This document shows positions 1,920 to 64,000 of a stretch of 64,000 nt of DNA, one piece after another. Below the pieces are notes generated by a model. It was given only the letters and a program-made list of their open reading frames with translations, searched no databases and was not told the DNA's origin. Made by a program: the position numbers and the translations under genes. Source of the DNA: a virus (Duplodnaviria > Heunggongvirae > Uroviricota > Caudoviricetes); the IMG/VR virus record IMGVR_UViG_3300026549_001031; one strand, written 5' to 3'. The stretch's first letter is position 1. Each line of letters begins with the position of its first letter.

Positions 1920-3414
1920 AGGTATGAAGTATAAGTCAGGAGATAGATTAGGGAATACAACCTTATATGTGGAGCAGACATATTACTCAAAGGTCATTTG
2001 TCGTTGTCAGAAATGCCTTGAAAGTGATGTTTACACAGAGGAGGAATTGGATTTTGGCACTGGTTGTAGAATCTGTGACAATATTAGCAGAGAAAAGCAG
2101 AGGTTAGTAATTTCACCTACAACTGATATGAAGAATGTAGCTAAGTTGTATGCAAAGCAGACGTACAGAAGTGGTTCAACAGTAGCATTTACGATGCCTG
2201 CAGGCTATAAGCTTGATGGGGTCGGCGTTGGAAGTGAGTTTGGACAGTTCAGAGTACAGGACTTTGTAGGTAAGGTTTATAGAAATGGCAATGGCTGGAA
2301 ACATGGTGATCCTAAGCAAGTAGTTGCAATCTGTAAGTATTGTGAGACATACAGCAGGTTGATTGATGTTAGCAAGGTTGCAGAGTATATTAAGACAGGT
2401 AAGGGTTTAGATGTACAGTGTCCTTGTTGTGGTAAGATCATCAATGAGGCTAGAGGCAGAGTTGATGCACTTAAGAAAAATAAGTCAGAGCATCTGAAAA
2501 AGGTGGTTGCAAAGAACAATAGCAACGAGGCTAAGAAAACTACAGAGGATGGGATTTCAAAGCTTATCAGTAGAGTTAAATCACCTTTGGATAATGTGAA
2601 GCCTGGTAGTAAAATTGACAAGCTTTTAAGTAAAGTTAAAAGCATGAATGCTGATTTAGATATACAGGATATTGAACCAATTAAGTCAAGCTACAAAGTG
2701 GTTTGTACATGTGGTAAATGCGGTACAGAAGTAAGTGTTTTGAGTTCTAACAGGAGTAAAGAGGTTGAATGTCCTGGTTGTAAATTAAAAGCAACAGACA
2801 TCAATTATGTTGGTGCTTATAAGAGAAATTACGTAGGCACTACTAAAAACTTAATGGAACTTCTGGGAAGAGATGGAGATACATGTACCGTTAAGTGTAA
2901 TTCATGTGGTAGGGTTTATACAAACATTAAGTTTTATGACTGGTATAAAGGAAAGGTCATTTGTAATTGTGATAATAACACACTGACTGATGTGCTATGC
3001 AATGAGTGTGGTGAGTTTATGACAATACCTTTGGGTAAGGTCATTGGTAAGGTAGACAATACAGAAGAGATTGTATGCAATAAGTGTGGAGCTAAGTCAG
3101 GTCATACTTATGGAGAGATCTATGATGATTATTTGGAAGCACCTAGTGTAGCAATCACTACAAGTAATAAATTAGGTGTGGCTAGAAAGAAATTAAGAGA
3201 GTCTACTGAAAAAGTAAACAATGAGCTTGTGAGAACAAAAGAGCCATTGTTCATTGGAACAGATGGCAAGATGTATTACAGATGTACTTGTTTGATTCAT
3301 GACTCTGACATGATATTAAATGATGATGAGATTGCAGTATTTAATCATCAACAGTGTACTGATGCAAGACAGCATATGATGAAGGATATAAACAAGGATA
3401 ATGTTAAGTTCTAA
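1909..3414 (+). CDS. Cys-rich multi-zinc-ribbon protein
   Basis: About a dozen CxxC-type pairs (CQKC, CRIC, CKYC, CPCC, CGKC, CPGC, CNSC, CNEC, CNKC); overlaps the helicase stop; start may be ATG 1924. Confidence 0.7.
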   Translation: MVNRGMKYKSGDRLGNTTLYVEQTYYSKVICRCQKCLESDVYTEEELDFGTGCRICDNISREKQRLVISPTTDMKNVAKLYAKQTYRSGSTVAFTMPAGYKLDGVGVGSEFGQFRVQDFVGKVYRNGNGWKHGDPKQVVAICKYCETYSRLIDVSKVAEYIKTGKGLDVQCPCCGKIINEARGRVDALKKNKSEHLKKVVAKNNSNEAKKTTEDGISKLISRVKSPLDNVKPGSKIDKLLSKVKSMNADLDIQDIEPIKSSYKVVCTCGKCGTEVSVLSSNRSKEVECPGCKLKATDINYVGAYKRNYVGTTKNLMELLGRDGDTCTVKCNSCGRVYTNIKFYDWYKGKVICNCDNNTLTDVLCNECGEFMTIPLGKVIGKVDNTEEIVCNKCGAKSGHTYGEIYDDYLEAPSVAITTSNKLGVARKKLRESTEKVNNELVRTKEPLFIGTDGKMYYRCTCLIHDSDMILNDDEIAVFNHQQCTDARQHMMKDINKDNVKF

Positions 3415-3442
3415 GAAGAAAATTGAGATTAACATGAGAGTT

Positions 3443-3487
3443 TACAGGATGTTGCATTATGAAAATGATGTAATGTCCTGTATTTTT
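3443..3487 (+). terminator. Rho-independent terminator
   Basis: TACAGGATGTTGCATT...GATGTAATGTCCTGTA hairpin followed by a T run. Confidence 0.6.
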
Positions 3488-3799
3488 GTACAGTGGTAAA
3501 TATATGATATGCAGTTCAATAGACATTGATTAAGAATCTGCATTTTTTAAGAAATTGATTTTTGTGTGACAAAAGAGAGGAATGACTTCAGAATTTTCAG
3601 GTACTTCAGAACGCTAGTCCTCGACATTGGGTCAAAAATAGGGTAAGCATTGAGAAAAATTTAGCTAGACAGTCAAGGTTCCAAAAATTGGTGCAAAATA
3701 AAAGATTTTCTGTGAGTGAGAATAGTTTAGAGGAATAGAATTGTATATAAAATTTAAGAAATTGTTTGTAGTATATGAACAATTTACAAGAATTAGAGG

Positions 3800-3828
3800 T
3801 TGACATAAGTAGTAATTTCAATTATAAT
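3800..3828 (+). promoter_or_regulatory. sigma70/sigmaA promoter
   Basis: TTGACA-17bp-TATAAT perfect consensus. Confidence 0.85.
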
Positions 3829-3862
3829 GTATATAGATAGTAAACATAAAGGAGATAAAGAT

Positions 3863-5008
3863 ATGCAAAGTAAGTTTGAGTTAAGCATTTCAACTGGATA
3901 TGTGCCTGATTGGGGAATAGTTGAGGCATTTAGAGAACTTTATCAGAACGCTATTGATAATGAGACAATCAATCCTGAAAATAAAGCATACTTTTCATTT
4001 GTGCAAGAGGATGAAAAAACAGGTACAGTAAGGATTACAAACAAGACATCAGTTCTTACAAAAGAAAGTCTTCTGTTAGGCAGCACTACAAAGGCAAATG
4101 ATGAAAATACCATTGGTAAGCATGGTGAAGGCTACAAGATTGCGTTTATGGTGCTTTTGAGAAATGGGAAAAAGATCAAGGTTTACAATTCATCTGCAAA
4201 GGAGATGTGGGAGGTTAGACTTGTCAAGAGCAGAAAGTACAATGGTCAACTTGTGACAACAGTCTTCGTGCAGAAGGATGCAGTATGGAAAAAGAAGACT
4301 GATGATAACCTTACCATTGAGGTTTCAGGAATTACACCTGAAGAATATGCAGAAGTCGTTGATAAAAACCTGCATCTGCATGAGTATAAGTCAGTGGCAG
4401 TAGGAGAATATGGTGAGATCTTACTTGATGAGAGTGAGGCAGGTAGGGTTTATGTTGAGGGCTTGTATGTTTGTGAGAGCAAGGGATTCAAGTATGGTTA
4501 TAACTTAAAGGCATCAAGAATTAACCTCGACAGAGACAGAAAACTGGTAGACTCCTTTCATTTAGAGTGGGAGACATCAGGAATGTGGGTTAAGTTAAGT
4601 TCTGAAAATGCAGAGTACAAAGAAAGCTTTGCACAGTTGGTTTCAGAACATACACGAGATGTTTCTAAATCAGCAAACAATGATTGTTTTACTTTCACTG
4701 CAGCTGAGGCATATGAAGCAGTTTATGAGAAGTTTCTCAGAGAGAATGGTAGCAATGCAGTTCCTGTAACAGACAATCTGGAATATGAGGAAGTCAAAAG
4801 ATCAAGTGGCTACAGACCTGTAATTGTATCAGAGGACATTGCAACTATGATTCATAAGTCAAAAACATACGTGGAGCCTGTAGAGATCGCAGTGAAACCT
4901 GTCAGTGTTAAATTAAGTGAGTGGCTTGAGGGAGTTAAAGATAGACTTTCAGAAGATGAGATTGATGACCTTGAGACATTAATTTCGGAGATAGAAGACA
5001 TTGAGTAA
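3863..5008 (+). CDS. GHKL (HATPase_c)-fold ATPase, rIIA/MORC-like
   Basis: EAFRELYQNAID N-box and GKHGEGYKIA G-box; start moved to ATG 3863 behind AAAGGAG. Confidence 0.75.
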   Translation: MQSKFELSISTGYVPDWGIVEAFRELYQNAIDNETINPENKAYFSFVQEDEKTGTVRITNKTSVLTKESLLLGSTTKANDENTIGKHGEGYKIAFMVLLRNGKKIKVYNSSAKEMWEVRLVKSRKYNGQLVTTVFVQKDAVWKKKTDDNLTIEVSGITPEEYAEVVDKNLHLHEYKSVAVGEYGEILLDESEAGRVYVEGLYVCESKGFKYGYNLKASRINLDRDRKLVDSFHLEWETSGMWVKLSSENAEYKESFAQLVSEHTRDVSKSANNDCFTFTAAEAYEAVYEKFLRENGSNAVPVTDNLEYEEVKRSSGYRPVIVSEDIATMIHKSKTYVEPVEIAVKPVSVKLSEWLEGVKDRLSEDEIDDLETLISEIEDIE

Positions 5009-26207: not shown

Positions 26208-27411
26208 AGATTATGCCCGGTATTATAGTAATATAGTGCTTGAATCTCTTTGAAAATGCTGGGAGTTGGTAAAATCTTAACTGCTACAACATAAGAATGA
26301 AATAAGTCTAGGTGTGAATGAGCCGAAAGGCAGAAAGAAATGTTAAGATTGCGTCATGCTGAAATAAAAGCCTTGCAATTTCGGGCTAGTTGCAAGGTGC
26401 TAAAACGTTTAACAATCCATAATCAGCAGGAAAGCATCGAATAGATGAATCCTCATCGACTATTACGTAGAATACAGTGTATTCGAAGTGGAGAGACATC
26501 CTGAATGAAACTTGTTTAGGATGATGATATAGTCAGGGTACTTAGAAAAACAATTCAAAACTTCAAAACTAAAAGAAATACAGTAAGAATAAAAATGATA
26601 GACAGGAGGTGAGAGGTTATGACATATGAAGAATGTATGAATAAGAAAGAAATTGTAGGCGAGTATACACAGATGGATGTTAGATACAATGGACAAAAGT
26701 ATAATATCAGCATTGGGGATAGAGTTGGTAGACTTAAGATTGTGAATCTTGTCAGATTTGTTCAGGGTAGTACAGTAAGAAAAGGTTGCATTTGTCTGTG
26801 TGAGTGTGGAGAATACATTGGACCGTCTAGGTTAAGATCTTTATTAGATGGAGATTTAGTCAGTTGCGGTTGTTATAGTTCTGAAATACATAGCAAAATG
26901 CTTAAAGAAAAGAACTATAAACATGGAGAATCTGTCAGAGAGCATAGAACAAAATTATATACAATCTGGGCATCAATGTTAGACAGAGCTGAAAATGCTA
27001 ATAGACCAGATAGTAAGTATTATGCTGACAAAGGAATTACAGTGTGTGACGAGTGGCATGATTTTACAGTCTTTAGAGATTGGGCTAACAGCAATGGATA
27101 TGTGGATGGACTTTCTATTGATAGAAAAGAAAACAGTTTAGGATACTGTCCTAATAATTGTCGTTGGGTGGTGTTAAGTGAGCAGAACAAAAACAAAACG
27201 AACAATAGATACTTAGAATACAATGGAAAGAGATTAACAATCACAGATTGGGGTAGACTCACAGGATTGAGATGGGATACAATAAATATAAGGTTAGAGG
27301 CTGGTAAAACAGTTGGTCAGGCATTAGGTTTTGAAGATTAGTATTGGTTTTGAATTGGTTTGGAAAATCTAATAAAGAGAGATAACATCAACGATTATTA
27401 GAGAGTGCACG
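26208..27411 (+). mobile_element. Group I self-splicing intron (IA-like) carrying a homing endonuclease
   Basis: 5' exon ends in T, intron ends in G; core elements AATGCTGGGA (26255), AATCAGCAGG (26421), TCATCGACTA (~26453), GATGATATAGTC (~26523); P7 GACTA/TAGTC, P3 TCTCT/AGAGA; removal restores GDG|VNDSPALK in frame. Confidence 0.93.
26619..27341 (+). CDS. Intron-encoded HNH-type homing endonuclease
   Basis: CICLCECG, SCGC, LYTIWASM, GITVCDEW, SIDRKENSLGYCPNNCRW, C-terminal HTH-like tail; flanked by pairing arms AATTCAAAAC/GTTTTGAATT; own AGGAGGTG RBS. Confidence 0.88.
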   Translation: MTYEECMNKKEIVGEYTQMDVRYNGQKYNISIGDRVGRLKIVNLVRFVQGSTVRKGCICLCECGEYIGPSRLRSLLDGDLVSCGCYSSEIHSKMLKEKNYKHGESVREHRTKLYTIWASMLDRAENANRPDSKYYADKGITVCDEWHDFTVFRDWANSNGYVDGLSIDRKENSLGYCPNNCRWVVLSEQNKNKTNNRYLEYNGKRLTITDWGRLTGLRWDTINIRLEAGKTVGQALGFED

Positions 27412-58521: not shown

Positions 58522-58569
58522 TAACTAGATATTGTGGTTAATAAACTGAAAATTGTCTAGATATGGTGC
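58522..58569 (+). promoter_or_regulatory. Tandem NrdR boxes
   Basis: TAACTAGATATTGTGG and TGTCTAGATATGGTGC, 32 bp apart, upstream of nrdD; match acaCwAtATaTwGtgt-type consensus. Confidence 0.65.
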
Positions 58570-58663
58570 TTTTAAGGTATAAAAAGAGTAATTTTTATTT
58601 TATATGAATTGTTGTTAGACTATGGTTTTACAACAAGGATACAAGAACATAGGAGGTTATAAA

Positions 58664-61600
58664 ATGGAGGACATGACATCAAGGGGTTTTGATCCTGATG
58701 TAGAAGACATTGACAATAGTGATGTCAATGAGTACAATGAGAGAGAAATTCTCGTTGCAAAGAGGAAAGGAACCTATGAGACATTCAAGGTTGGAAAGCT
58801 GGCAGATTCAATATTTGCCGCAGCAGCTGAAGTTGGTGGAGAGGACTTACAGATTGCAGATGATCTGGCAACAGAAATTCAGGATATGCTTGAGTCAAAT
58901 GATATTCATATCATTGAAGCATCTGATCTGCATGATATGGTTTATAAGTGTTTAGTAGATAACAAACATGCAGCAACTTCAGAGAGATACCTTACAGAAA
59001 GTATTAAGCGCAGTAATCAGAGAGAAATGGACACTGCACTTATGAAATCGTTTGAGGAAATTACATTTAAGTCTGAAGAGGACAGTGAGGTTAAGCGTGA
59101 AAATGCTAACATCGACAGTTCAACAGCAATGGGTACCATGCTGAAATATGGTTCAGAGGCAGCTAAAAACTTTAACTTGCTGTACTTAATGACACCTGAT
59201 ATAGCTAATGCACACAGAAATGGAGATATACATATCCATGATTTGGACTTCCTCTCATTAACTGAAACCTGCATGCAGCTTGCACTTGATAAGCTTTTTG
59301 ATGGTGGTTTCAACACTGGTCATGGTTATTTAAGACAGCCTGGAAGTATTAGGGCAGCAGCAGCACAGGCAGCAATCGCTATACAGAGTGATCAGAATGA
59401 TCAGCATGGTGGTCAGTCAATTCCTCTGTTTGATTACTATTTGGCTCCTTATGTGGCACTGACATATGTAAAACAGATTGCACACATTGCAAAGATTAAG
59501 TTTGACCTTAACAAAGAGAAATATCATGAGTTAAAACACAGACTCGTTGATTATCAGAAAGAGCATAAGACAGTGATGAATAAGCAAGGGTATAGTGATA
59601 TCAATGACATTCTTACTAAATTCTGTGAAGAGTTTAAGGTCAAGGCATCTAAGAAGAGACTTAAGAAAGTAATGAAAGATGCATATGATGATACATACTA
59701 TGACACCTATCAGGCGATGGAAGCATTTATTCATAACTTAAACACTATGCATTGTTTACCTGCTAGTGAAAAGATTTGGGTGCTTGATGTTAAGACAAAC
59801 AATCTTACACTTATGACAATGGAGGCACTTGATAGTGTATTCGAGCCTAAGAGATTTAAGGTAATTTCCTTAAATAAAAAGACAGGCAAGGCAGAGTTTA
59901 AGTTTATCACTAAATCTCAGAGAAAAGACAATCAGAGAAAATTGGTTAAACTTAAAGATAATCAGGGCAGGGCAGTGAGAGTTACTGATAATCATAAGTT
60001 AATGACTATGGATGGCATTAAGATTTCAGAGAAACTCCCTAAAGATTGTGAGTATACATTGTCACCTAGAGGAATTGACTTCCCTCCTGTAAAGTATGAC
60101 ATGTGTGTTTCAGACTTTGGTAAACCTAGAAAGGACAATGCTTTTCAGAATGATCATGTGATTGTTTCTGAAGCATTTGCAGAGTTTATGGGATACTATA
60201 TGGGAGATGGATGTATTCTTGGTCAAACATCAACCTGTTGCATTTCAGCTTGTGGTAAGGTCACATTTGAATATATGGAGGACTTACTTAAGAGAGCATT
60301 TGGTTGTGAGTTTAGGACTTCATATACATACTTCAATCATTCAAAAGAGGGTAAGACAGAGAAAGATATCAGGATTCAGCTTGGTATGCCATTAGCAAGA
60401 ATGATTGCTAGTAAGTTTGGACGCATTGGTAAAGAAAAGCATATCCCTGTAGAAATTCTTATGGGACCTAGGGAAGTAAGAATTGCTTTCTTAAAAGCTT
60501 ACTTTGCAATGGATGGAAGAAAAGATGCTAAGTATTCAGAGTTAAGTACATGTACAGAAGTACTTCAGAAGCAGGTAGCTTTGATGCTTTCATCATTAGG
60601 AGTTTCACCTCATTATGGAGAAACAATCATCGATGGAGATCGTAAGGTCTTCTTTGTAAGTTTAAGTGCACATGACTCATATGAGTGTGGACTTAAAGAT
60701 AGTGATGAAACAGCATTTCAGATTCCTAAGTATGACTTATCTATGGTTTATGATGCATACAAAGAAGAATGTGATGACATCACAGGTAGAAGAACAAGTC
60801 ATAGATTAAGATACAATGAGCTCGAGGAATTGATTGATGAACATGATGCAAAAGATGTGATGCATTTGAGAAATGTGTTCATCAATAATATTGAGAGCAC
60901 TGAAGATGAGTCAAGTGGAGATGAATATGTTTATGACATCTCTGTTGAAGATAATGAGAACTTCTTAACTAAGGATTGCATCTTCGTGCATAACAGCAGA
61001 GCAGGTGCGCAGGTACCATTTAGCAGTATTAATTACGGAACTGATACATCTACTGAAGGTAGAATGGTCATGGAAACAATACTTAAGTCAACTTGGGATG
61101 GCTTAGGAAATGGGGAGATCCCTATTTTCCCTATTCAGATCTTTAAGTTAAAGGCTGGAGTGTCATATAATAAAGAAGATCCGAACTATGATTTGTTTGA
61201 GTTGTCATGTAAGGTAAGTGCAAAGAGACTTTATCCTAACTTTGTAAACCTTGATGCTCCTTACAATGCAGAGTTATATGTGCCTGGACATCCTGAAACA
61301 GAGATGGCTACGATGGGGTGTGTAGAATCATCTGAAATTTTACACTATACAATAGATGGTTTAGAATACATTGAGACATTTGAGAAAGCATACAACAGAA
61401 TTAGCAATCTTCGCAGGAGCACAGAGTACTCTTATAACTCTGATTACATTGATGTATCTGACATTGATGTTAGAGTAAAAGATTCAGTGCATGGCTTTGT
61501 TAAAGTTAAGAAGTTCATTAAAAATAAGAATGTTAACAATTTCAATGTAATTAAGTTCTCTGATGGATATAGTTTAACAGCTACTTCTGATCATCCTTTA

Positions 61601-63457
61601 CCAGTTGTTGGAAAAGGTAGAACATTTGTCAAAGACTTAAACATTGGAGATAAAGTAGAGGTATCACGTAATGATGCAGTTAACTCTGATAATAAGTTTA
61701 TGACAGCTTATTTTAAGGAATATACTTATATTCTTGGTGTAATACTTGCAGATGCATCATATAAGACTCAGATTTGCATTAGTCTTGGACTTGATGAAAA
61801 AGATGTAGCTGATTACATTAAGAGCATTGTGAATGATCTTGGATACAGATTAAATGTGAAAGAGCAGCATAGGGATACTAAGGGTGATTACTTTGATTGT
61901 TGTATTAGAGGCATCAAGACGTTAAAATATGCAGAGAGAGAATTAGCTTCAATCTTTGGTGGCTATAAGAAGGCAGGGAGAACTATTCCTTCATCATTAC
62001 TGACAGCATCTAGGAAATACAGATTAGCATTTCTTGCTGGTTTAATGGACGCTGATGGACATGTAACCTGCAGTAAGAGTAGTGATGGTGAGACAGAAAG
62101 ATCAGCTAGATTTAGCATTGGAAGTACAAACAAGGCACTTGCAATGACAGAATTAGCTCTCATTAGAGGTTTAGGGTACAAGGCTAAAATGTACAGGAAC
62201 AAGTACAGTTCAAAGCATTCTAAGATCAGATACCTTATTGAGTTTGAAATCACAGATGAGTTATTAGCAGAGATGCATTGTGGAAAGAAGATTGACAAGG
62301 CTAATAAAGTTGACAGATGCAAGTTTAGTGATGTAGACGTAGTAGAGGTTGTAAGTATTACATCTGGTTGCGAAGAGAATGAACTTAATGGAATTAGTTA
62401 TGACCTTGAGACAGAATCTGATATGCTTGATATTTCTTACATTAGTAGTCATAACTGTAGAACACGTGTAAGTACAAACAAGCATGATTTAGGTAAGCAG
62501 GTCATTCCTGGTCGTGGTAATTTGTCATTTACAAGTATCAACTTGCCTAGATTAGCAATTATGTCCAATGGTGATATTGATAAGTTCTATAAGTTATTGG
62601 ATAACAGGCTTGAGTTAGTTCATAAACAGCTCTTACAGAGATTTGAGTTGCAGTGTTTGAAACATCCGATCAACTATCCTTTCTTAATGGGACAGGGTGT
62701 TTGGATTGGAAGTGATTTACTTGGACCTAATGATGACATTAGAGACATTCTTAAAAATGGTACTCTTGGTGTAGGGTTTATTGGACTTGCAGAGACCTTA
62801 ACATCATTGATTGGTGAGCATCATGGACAGTCTGAAAGAGCAGAGAAGCTTGGTCTTGAAATCATTCAGCATATGAGAGATTACACAGATGCATGGTCAG
62901 AAAATGAACACATGAATTATGGTGTAATTGGTACACCTGCTGAGGGATTGTCTGGTAGGTTTGTAAGAATGGACAAGAAGAAGTTTGGTGTGATCCCTGG
63001 AGTTACAGATAAGGAGTATTATACAAATAGCTCTCACATTCCTGTAAGTTTTCCGATCAGTGCAACTAAGAAGATTCAGCTTGAGGCTCCTTTCCATGCA
63101 ATCGAAAATGGTGGTCACATATTATATATTGAGATGGATGGAGACCCTACAAAGAATGTTGGGGCATTTATGAAAGTTGTGAGATACATGCATGATAATA
63201 ATGCAGGATATTTTGCAATCAATCACCCTGTAGATAGAGATCCTGTTTGTAATTACACAGGCATCATTGATGATGTTTGTCCTCGTTGTGGTAGAAAAGA
63301 GGGCGAACCTATGACAATGGAAATGTGGAAGAGGATTCATCAGACAGCAGGGGCTGGTAACATTTGTACATGTGGTGCATGTGGAGATCCTAATGAAGAG
63401 GCAGATAGAATTTCAAATGCTATTGATACATCAGATTTGAAATTTGACTTCGAATAA
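58664..63457 (+). CDS. nrdD: Anaerobic (class III) ribonucleotide reductase, two inteins, lacking the C-terminal glycyl-radical motif
   Basis: ATP cone, ENAN, HIHDLD, QHGGQ, SRAGAQVPFSSIN, MG|CRT, GRGNLSFTSINL, TPAEGL, YYTNS, GGHI, CPRCG; about 804 aa after splicing. Confidence 0.95.
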   Translation: MEDMTSRGFDPDVEDIDNSDVNEYNEREILVAKRKGTYETFKVGKLADSIFAAAAEVGGEDLQIADDLATEIQDMLESNDIHIIEASDLHDMVYKCLVDNKHAATSERYLTESIKRSNQREMDTALMKSFEEITFKSEEDSEVKRENANIDSSTAMGTMLKYGSEAAKNFNLLYLMTPDIANAHRNGDIHIHDLDFLSLTETCMQLALDKLFDGGFNTGHGYLRQPGSIRAAAAQAAIAIQSDQNDQHGGQSIPLFDYYLAPYVALTYVKQIAHIAKIKFDLNKEKYHELKHRLVDYQKEHKTVMNKQGYSDINDILTKFCEEFKVKASKKRLKKVMKDAYDDTYYDTYQAMEAFIHNLNTMHCLPASEKIWVLDVKTNNLTLMTMEALDSVFEPKRFKVISLNKKTGKAEFKFITKSQRKDNQRKLVKLKDNQGRAVRVTDNHKLMTMDGIKISEKLPKDCEYTLSPRGIDFPPVKYDMCVSDFGKPRKDNAFQNDHVIVSEAFAEFMGYYMGDGCILGQTSTCCISACGKVTFEYMEDLLKRAFGCEFRTSYTYFNHSKEGKTEKDIRIQLGMPLARMIASKFGRIGKEKHIPVEILMGPREVRIAFLKAYFAMDGRKDAKYSELSTCTEVLQKQVALMLSSLGVSPHYGETIIDGDRKVFFVSLSAHDSYECGLKDSDETAFQIPKYDLSMVYDAYKEECDDITGRRTSHRLRYNELEELIDEHDAKDVMHLRNVFINNIESTEDESSGDEYVYDISVEDNENFLTKDCIFVHNSRAGAQVPFSSINYGTDTSTEGRMVMETILKSTWDGLGNGEIPIFPIQIFKLKAGVSYNKEDPNYDLFELSCKVSAKRLYPNFVNLDAPYNAELYVPGHPETEMATMGCVESSEILHYTIDGLEYIETFEKAYNRISNLRRSTEYSYNSDYIDVSDIDVRVKDSVHGFVKVKKFIKNKNVNNFNVIKFSDGYSLTATSDHPLPVVGKGRTFVKDLNIGDKVEVSRNDAVNSDNKFMTAYFKEYTYILGVILADASYKTQICISLGLDEKDVADYIKSIVNDLGYRLNVKEQHRDTKGDYFDCCIRGIKTLKYAERELASIFGGYKKAGRTIPSSLLTASRKYRLAFLAGLMDADGHVTCSKSSDGETERSARFSIGSTNKALAMTELALIRGLGYKAKMYRNKYSSKHSKIRYLIEFEITDELLAEMHCGKKIDKANKVDRCKFSDVDVVEVVSITSGCEENELNGISYDLETESDMLDISYISSHNCRTRVSTNKHDLGKQVIPGRGNLSFTSINLPRLAIMSNGDIDKFYKLLDNRLELVHKQLLQRFELQCLKHPINYPFLMGQGVWIGSDLLGPNDDIRDILKNGTLGVGFIGLAETLTSLIGEHHGQSERAEKLGLEIIQHMRDYTDAWSENEHMNYGVIGTPAEGLSGRFVRMDKKKFGVIPGVTDKEYYTNSSHIPVSFPISATKKIQLEAPFHAIENGGHILYIEMDGDPTKNVGAFMKVVRYMHDNNAGYFAINHPVDRDPVCNYTGIIDDVCPRCGRKEGEPMTMEMWKRIHQTAGAGNICTCGACGDPNEEADRISNAIDTSDLKFDFE
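59753..60994 (+). mobile_element. Intein 1 in NrdD (414 aa, LAGLIDADG-type)
   Basis: NTMH|CLP ... VTDNH ... FMGYYMGDG, FLKAYFAMDG ... VYDISV..NENF...VHN|SRAG. Confidence 0.93.
61319..62455 (+). mobile_element. Intein 2 in NrdD (379 aa, LAGLIDADG-type)
   Basis: ATMG|CVE ... ATSDH ... LGVILAD, FLAGLMDADG ... SYDLET...SHN|CRT. Confidence 0.93.
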
Positions 63458-63483
63458 AAGGATAAAACAAGTTTTGAATGTGG

Positions 63484-63518
63484 TAAAGACAGGCAGGCTA
63501 GAGCTTGACCTGTCTTTA
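63484..63518 (+). terminator. Terminator-like hairpin between nrdD and the glycyl-radical ORF
   Basis: TAAAGACAGG...CCTGTCTTTA. Confidence 0.6.
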
Positions 63519-63601
63519 TTAGACAATAAAATTAAAGATGGACTAGTTTAGAGAGCGTGTTAAGTTTAAGTTTGTGAAAACATCCTTGATTTAGACATAA
63601 T

Positions 63602-63617
63602 ATACAAAATATTGTGT
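63602..63617 (+). promoter_or_regulatory. NrdR-box-like site
   Basis: ATACAAAATATTGTGT upstream of the small glycyl-radical ORF. Confidence 0.5.
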
Positions 63618-63655
63618 ATTTTAATATAAAATAAAAATTAAAGGAGGGCATTATT

Positions 63656-63802
63656 ATGTCAGCAGTTGTATCAGAGGTAGAAAGAGGTAAAGGCGTTAGG
63701 TTTGAGAGAAAGAGAAGAATAACTGGATACATTTCAGGAGATCTCAATACATGGAACTCTGCTAAACGTGCAGAGGAAAGAGATAGAGTAAAGCACTGTT
63801 AA
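63656..63802 (+). CDS. Stand-alone 48-aa NrdD glycyl-radical domain
   Basis: MSAVVSEVERGKGVRFERKRRITGYISGDLNTWNSAKRAEERDRVKHC contains RITGY and the N..K..E..DRVKH terminus of NrdD; AAGGAGG RBS. Confidence 0.88.
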   Translation: MSAVVSEVERGKGVRFERKRRITGYISGDLNTWNSAKRAEERDRVKHC

Positions 63803-63947
63803 TGAATGGGCATAGAAGTTTAAGGTTTATGTCCTTGAAATATGCCTGATTGTATAATTTAATATATTAAATTATTTTTTAATAGAGTTGGGGCAGTAAA
63901 GGCTTCAACTCTATAGGCATATTAAAGATAGAGAGGACAGTGTAAAA

Positions 63948-64000
63948 ATGAGGGTTGCACAGATTTATAATGAGAGTGTCGTGGATGGAACGGGCTGGAG
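63948..64000 (+). CDS. nrdG: Anaerobic RNR activating radical-SAM enzyme, 5' end (truncated by window)
   Basis: MRVAQIYNESVVDGTGW matches the NrdG N-terminal S.VDG.G.R motif; follows nrdD. Confidence 0.75.
   Translation, partial: MRVAQIYNESVVDGTGW

Follow-up and report, generated by a model that had tools for sequence, protein, structure and literature searches.

Oxygen cuts glycyl radical enzymes at the radical glycine. E. coli (GrcA/YfiD) and phage T4 (Y06I, or vs.6) have free glycyl-radical cofactors that restore pyruvate formate-lyase after its cleavage by oxygen (PMC8683613; PMC13450708). According to a review of June 2026, formate lyases are the only enzymes for which such spare parts are known, the case of other glycyl radical enzymes being “yet to be determined” (PMC13450708). 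Here we describe a class III ribonucleotide reductase, NrdD, that is very probably a true two-subunit enzyme plus an activase, as judged from its sequence and a predicted fold. It is encoded on the plus strand, at positions 58664–63802, of a 64,000-nucleotide (nt) stretch from the Caudoviricetes record IMGVR_UViG_3300026549_001031, and we use the term window to refer to that whole stretch.

The closest described enzymes are made in one piece. The NrdD/NrdG systems of phage T4, E. coli, Thermotoga maritima and Prevotella copri (PDB 8P23; PMC11226230) share with the window an ATP-cone, a barrel, a finger-loop cysteine, a zinc ribbon, a RITGY...RVxH segment and an adjacent nrdG. The window departs from them in that the radical segment is a separate product of 48 amino acids (aa), the zinc ribbon is followed in the body by about 50 additional aa that form a conserved tail, the ribbon has three cysteines rather than four, and the body carries two inteins. 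Like GrcA/YfiD and Y06I, the window peptide is a small, standalone and phage-borne homologue of a radical domain that sometimes occurs without a parent enzyme; unlike GrcA/YfiD, it is homologous to NrdD (PF13597) and not to pyruvate formate-lyase. Moreover, GrcA/YfiD is a spare beside a parent enzyme that keeps its own radical domain, whereas the window body has no radical glycine, so that the peptide would be obligatory.

Another phage reductase is known to be divided. In Aeromonas phage Aeh1, a homing endonuclease gene splits the class I nrdA, and the pieces reassemble non-covalently. The window resembles Aeh1 in that the catalytic subunit of a phage ribonucleotide reductase is encoded in pieces, but the class and the split site are different, nothing mobile lies in the window gap, and the split appears to be old and widespread in bacteria. 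The window combines a split NrdD, two polymorphic inteins and a radical-domain-like conserved tail on a giant gut element. In the full-text literature that we searched, no description of a split NrdD was found.

The body and the radical peptide

The nrdD frame is open from 58622 to 63457 (+), and residue numbers are counted here from 58622 (1611 aa). The probable start is the ATG at 58664, with AGGAGG 8 nt upstream, so that the precursor of the catalytic body spans 58664–63457. Pfam recognizes an ATP-cone, NRDD (1.8e-171, the match being divided in three by the inteins), Intein_splicing, LAGLIDADG_3 and Hom_end, and NCBIfam NrdD models match as well; extein 3 by itself matches NF005497 (2e-129) and TIGR02487 (6e-91), which identifies an NrdD barrel. 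Removal of the two inteins leaves a body of about 804 aa, counted from the ATG at 58664. The finger-loop cysteine (MGCRTR) is Cys1279, directly after intein 2, with a catalytic role assigned by homology, and G899, C1279, R1280, T1281 and R1282 are all invariant in the alignment of relatives that we call A3. The zinc-ribbon segment VCNYTGIIDDVCPRCG (63248–63295, +) has only three cysteines (Cys1543, Cys1553 and Cys1556). Neither these nor H1535, D1538 and D1540 vary in A3, and the last three could act as metal ligands in a three-cysteine ribbon.

The glycyl-radical motif is absent from this chain. An earlier note on this DNA, made from the sequence alone, had claimed that NrdD ends after its CPRCG without an RxxGY motif, and the profile and the translation agree: coverage of the NRDD profile ends at position 539 of 562, which corresponds to residue 1572, twenty residues past CPRCG (aa 1553), and no RxxGY occurs in the 39 aa between residue 1572 and the TAA stop of the nrdD translation. 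At the place where RVxGY would be expected, the body reads RIHQTAG.

The missing segment is found in a second open reading frame (ORF) at 63656–63802 (+), whose product of 48 aa reads ...RRITGYISG...AKRAEERDRVKHC. It matches Pfam NRDD at positions 533–562 (E = 5e-7), and the NCBIfam NrdD models divide between body and peptide in the same way. It also aligns to residues 709–738, including the GY radical motif, of the solved P. copri NrdD (PDB 8P23), in which the radical was assigned to Gly711 (PMC11226230). The predicted radical glycine of the peptide is Gly24 of RRITGY (63725–63727). The pyruvate formate-lyase domain Gly_radical (PF01228) gave no match to the peptide, PF13597 (NRDD) being the only hit at E up to 1; among PHROGs, the peptide matches solely the NrdD family phrog_487, and neither PHROGs nor NCBIfam holds a model for the small protein itself. 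The start codon is preceded at 8 nt by a Shine-Dalgarno (SD) sequence, AGGAGG (63642–63647, +). Downstream, nrdG begins at 63948 and runs off the window at 64000 (+) after 17 codons. Its start, MRVAQIYNESVVDGTGW, is identical to that of the gene in L245, a relative with a 97%-identical tail on a human gut contig of 464,735 bp, where the complete NrdG has 173 aa and matches Fer4_12 (2.4e-39) and Radical_SAM, in keeping with a radical-SAM activase. A small ORF with its own ribosome-binding site directly before nrdG, which the earlier note had also reported, is therefore confirmed.

The small protein has many homologues. Database searches yield 2669 matching proteins of 26–84 aa, which share the N-terminal consensus MxxVVSExxRGKGVxFERIRRITGY, and which, with the dedicated SD and ATG, mark it as a standalone radical-domain protein. 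An SD-like motif lies 4–12 nt before a start codon in 183 of the 191 standalone homologues at fetched loci, which come from genomes, viral contigs and metagenomes; this count is biased upward because the start of each homologue was chosen as the one with the best SD. The ratio of nonsynonymous to synonymous polymorphism (pN/pS) is 0.25 in the core and 0.58 in the N-terminus, with synonymous sites saturated. Between the window and L245, the small ORF differs by three synonymous changes and one conservative Ile/Val exchange, and the intergenic DNA has insertions and deletions.

A predicted fold supports docking of the peptide on the body. The exteins (aa 120–377, 792–899 and 1279–1611) and the peptide were given as four chains, each with its own alignment, and the docking score was 0.72, as compared with 0.00 for the best of three controls. 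In the calibration, that mark is attained by 58 of 80 solved complexes and by 2 of 110 mismatched pairs; the present fold departs from the calibration in that we supplied the alignments ourselves and used four chains. At least 91% of contacts are common to the runs, and the predicted local distance difference test (pLDDT) value of the partner is at least 67. In this configuration, peptide residues 13–19 lie beside the zinc ribbon, paired with 1537–1542 and 1560–1564, residue 1553 is also contacted by the peptide, the loop region touches G899 and C1279–R1280, and the peptide C-terminus meets 1475–1476 and 1504; these confident contacts are consistent with the canonical placement. One-piece NrdD structures have been solved, and because of this the result may reflect memory of a known fold; it points to a likeness to the one-piece enzyme and is not a proof that this copy binds. 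With that reservation, the co-folding that the earlier note had proposed as a check comes out, for the body pieces and the peptide, in favor of docking.

The gap between the two frames and the spread of the layout

The body and peptide ORFs lie in the same frame, and the arrangement might alternatively be read as a normal one-piece NrdD whose two parts end up in a single chain through an intron, trans-splicing, read-through or frameshifting. There is some precedent for this, since the element contains a group I intron elsewhere and its nrdD already carries two inteins, and in phage T4 nrdD is interrupted by a group I intron. Between the two ORFs, however, there are seven in-frame stops, from the TAA of nrdD (63455–63457, +) to 63634, four of them TAA and three TGA, so that neither the reassignment of a single codon nor read-through can join the ORFs. 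A search of 63000–64000 for group I and group II introns in Rfam (RF00028 among them) gave no match even at E = 10, and five related loci gave no intron match at the gathering level; the same model detects the known group I intron at 26335–26554 of the window (E = 2e-4), and the search is therefore able to find such introns in this element. In addition, the distance from the body stop to the radical motif falls to 37–52 nt in relatives, which is too short for an intron, and the SD, the ATG and the N-terminal extension of the small ORF are conserved, as is the tail of the body. We consider the one-chain reading to be largely refuted and hardly credible. As a side observation on stop codons, frames of at least 200 codons in the window end 27 times in TAA, 16 times in TAG and only twice in TGA, which is almost unused in this element of 36% GC.

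The gap itself is structured. A terminator-like hairpin, which the earlier note had placed between nrdD and the small ORF, is borne out at 63481–63521 (+), where an 18-pair stem followed by UUUAUU is kept in the centroid structure; the folding energy of the gap is -45.4 kcal/mol (z = -4.1), and in L245 the stem is conserved and the loop differs. Promoter-like hexamers also occur in the gap. Upstream of nrdD there are two NrdR-box-like sites, at 58524–58536 and 58556–58568 (+; 0 and 1 mismatches to the pattern ACWAKATATNGTG), spaced 32 bp apart in the usual tandem layout, and these suggest, at the level of sequence, that the reductase of the element is under control of an NrdR repressor. For the similar site that the note had claimed before the small ORF, what stands is a single box at 63604–63616 (+), with one mismatch, inside the near-palindrome ATACAAAATATTGTGTAT, in which L245 has a G to A change. 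Sites with at most one mismatch number four in the window, and three of these flank the nrdD/peptide locus, but the test is weak because the two tandem sites before nrdD were themselves the source of the pattern.

The two-gene layout is shared by many relatives. RRITGY is absent from the bodies of all 120 closest relatives of extein 3 (67–100% identity; contigs of up to 672 kb), which include forms with no, one and two inteins. Among metagenome loci with at least about 950 nt of downstream DNA, every long-tail relative has a canonical small ORF, and two short-tail loci (L315 and L324) have none within about 3 kb. In L245, the order of body, peptide and nrdG is the same as in the window. Altogether, a motif-less body with a small ORF downstream on the same strand is found at 60 loci, namely the window and 59 that were fetched, in which the stop and the motif are separated by 52–320 nt, and the separation is as short as 37 nt in some metagenome loci. 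Decay of a once intact gene is an unlikely explanation of this layout: the small ORF is preceded by a strong ribosome-binding site, bodies without the motif are found in 120 of 120 relatives, and the small ORF follows in nearly all of those with enough downstream DNA.

In bacteria, the only NrdD of the Allofournierella massiliensis genome is split, and 10 of 61 sampled genomes of its order have a body that matches profile positions 1–531 and an adjacent match to 532/533–562. Desulfovibrio, Mailhella, Bilophila, Bacilli and other lineages have split forms as well. On these sequences, the layout is real, old and widespread in bacteria, and not confined to phages. The proposal that the radical domain has become a permanent subunit of its own, translated independently of the body, is supported by the 2669 homologues, the 60 loci, the conservation in the clade and the fold. 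Four Oscillospirales genomes were considered as fused forms with a long linker, but in-frame stops lie between the parts, and these genomes have the split form too. A scan of viral contigs with extein 3 gave no match, and one with the alignment A2 gave only relatives at 57% identity or less.

Two individual cases differ in detail. Eggerthella phage EL753P1 (L004; OP172808) has a split NrdD at 3380–4130, with an ORF of 102 aa between body and peptide; its small ORF shifts frame at RRI|TTGY, and the annotated gene of 42 aa ends short of the glycine, which could reflect a sequencing error, a pseudogene or recoding. In Owariibacterium komagatae (G008), one NrdD is split, and another matches the whole profile but contains one TGA.

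Tail, orphan peptides and the proposed enzyme

The tail of the body (63296–63454, +; aa 1559–1611; KEGEPMTMEMWKRIHQTAGAGNICTCGACGDPNEEADRISN...) has no Gly-Tyr at the motif position. The earlier note had called this tail unrelated, which is not upheld: it is common to all 120 nearest relatives, with the consensus GEPMTMEMWxKI[KH]GYANxGNADTLGxxGNPxEExDRxxN after CPRCGR. A second metal site at CTCGAC was considered and rejected, because the cysteines vary among relatives, which read DTLGYHG, DTLGVTG or DTCGACG there. The tail is collinear with the radical domain: EMWxKIKGY corresponds to ERIRRITGY, and EExDRxxN to EERDRVKH. An hhalign comparison with the small-protein family gave P = 0.011, a score reached by 7 of 300 column permutations, and the NCBIfam NrdD models extend to the profile end in several relatives. 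The tail may be a decayed resident glycyl-radical domain, a tentative reading that we hold to be less likely than not, and the shorter tails of bacterial bodies (...ELRKKYPEMPAFQGIE) may be later stages of the same decay.

A different interpretation of this resemblance is that the tail still works as a radical domain, with another residue or arrangement, and that the peptide is only a spare against oxygen damage in the manner of GrcA/YfiD. Besides the collinearity, about 83% of the 120 relatives have [KH]GY where the window has HQT, and three sampled genomes with a one-piece NrdD also have an unlinked small ORF (G042, G045 and G066). Against this, about 17% of the clade, with the window among them, have Q, K, R or N in place of the glycine of KGY, and seven other tail positions are invariant; most tails have Lys at the position of the Arg of RVxGY; and AlphaFold2 leaves the tail unplaced in the body of a relative modeled alone (P0133, mean pLDDT 75), with residues 740–781 below pLDDT 50. 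The canonical small ORF is also present beside tails of the KGY type. We regard a working tail in the window as very improbable. Because the window body has no radical glycine, the peptide is, on its sequence, the regular radical subunit there and not a spare.

Peptide genes also occur alone. No NrdD or NrdG lies within 4 kb in 29 of the 43 loci of the nearest viral relatives of the peptide, and all five IMG/VR records that were searched whole have the peptide gene and no NrdD body; among them are three with a completeness of at least 90%, of which one has terminal repeats. Orphan genes of this kind (L085–L093, L110, L113 and L120; IMG/VR) were seen on contigs of about 30 kb between an endolysin-like gene and a serine recombinase, an interval that is a usual place of accessory genes in temperate phages. 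A related observation is that Desulfovibrio falkowii (G007) combines a single NrdD body with four small radical-peptide ORFs that lie apart from one another.

Such phages suggest, indirectly, a use of the peptide on host NrdD, and the window peptide could itself be a phage-type free cofactor for a host enzyme, its own body being inactive or independent of it. The accessory-type location of the orphan copies, and the hairpin with a possible promoter and operator between nrdD and the peptide gene, agree with this. However, the window body is conserved, with invariant catalytic residues and with intein junctions that keep the residues needed for splicing; nrdG is adjacent, the type of tail and the type of peptide N-terminus covary across loci, and the fold docks the peptide on the body of the window itself. 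For this locus, a host-directed cofactor seems improbable to us, if slightly less so than a working tail.

In the two-subunit enzyme that we propose, the inteins would excise themselves to give an NrdD body with the ATP-cone, the barrel, Cys1279 and the zinc ribbon, and with no radical glycine, and the missing radical part would come from the 48-aa protein, translated from a ribosome-binding site of its own. Peptide residues 13–19 would add a strand beside the zinc-ribbon hairpin, the RRITGY loop would reach into the barrel next to Cys1279, and the C-terminal helix would lie on the barrel surface as in one-piece NrdD. NrdG would then place the radical on Gly24, from where, by established class III chemistry, it would pass to Cys1279 for nucleotide reduction. 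The split might be of benefit because only the peptide would have to be renewed after cleavage by oxygen, which we infer to be cheap, or because the hairpin and the NrdR-like box would allow the two genes to be regulated separately.

Several points weigh against this reading. Between the two genes lie a hairpin, promoter-like hexamers and one NrdR-like box, which may indicate that the peptide is expressed apart from the body; peptides of its clade often stand alone in phages, and the window peptide could also serve another body; the radical-domain-like tail has Gly-Tyr in most relatives, and those bodies might carry a radical of their own; and a second, one-piece nrdD is possible elsewhere in the element, beyond the window.

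A broader scenario would connect the two-subunit enzyme with the orphan genes. NrdD-type peptides of about 47 residues may be exchangeable cofactors that phages and giant elements, often lacking any NrdD body of their own, load on resident bodies to sustain deoxynucleotide synthesis, and the obligate two-piece enzyme may have arisen from such a spare-part stage, of which the decayed tail (KGY/HQT) would be a trace. We think this rather unlikely, though worth stating. Whatever its origin, a natural and widespread NrdD with a free radical domain of 48 residues would make the spare-part question testable for the enzyme that provides anaerobes with DNA precursors. For work on NrdG the peptide would offer a small substrate, and its gene points to a novel type of phage accessory gene. 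Gene calling and annotation may overlook the small ORF, and such nrdD genes then look truncated or broken though they are not.

The two inteins

Both insertions in nrdD have the features of class 1 inteins. Intein 1 (59753–60994, +; aa 378–791, 414 aa) lies at the site NLNTMH|SRAGAQ and matches Pfam Intein_splicing (1.6e-16). Intein 2 (61319–62455, +; aa 900–1278, 379 aa), at ATMG|CRTRV, contains a LAGLIDADG homing endonuclease (Hom_end, 2.5e-9; LAGLIDADG_3, 8e-8) in addition to Intein_splicing, and its insertion point directly precedes the conserved finger-loop cysteine. The junctions C378...HN791|S792 and C900...HN1278|C1279 each have the first Cys, the terminal His-Asn and the +1 nucleophile. 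Intein-free relatives of 781 aa, which are included in A3, align across both sites, and the flanks H377|S792 and G899|C1279 are invariant in that alignment. Intein 1 is missing from L245, and relatives that are 98–100% identical occur in forms of 1200, 1232, 1326–1343 and 1611 aa; this polymorphism points to recent gain or loss.

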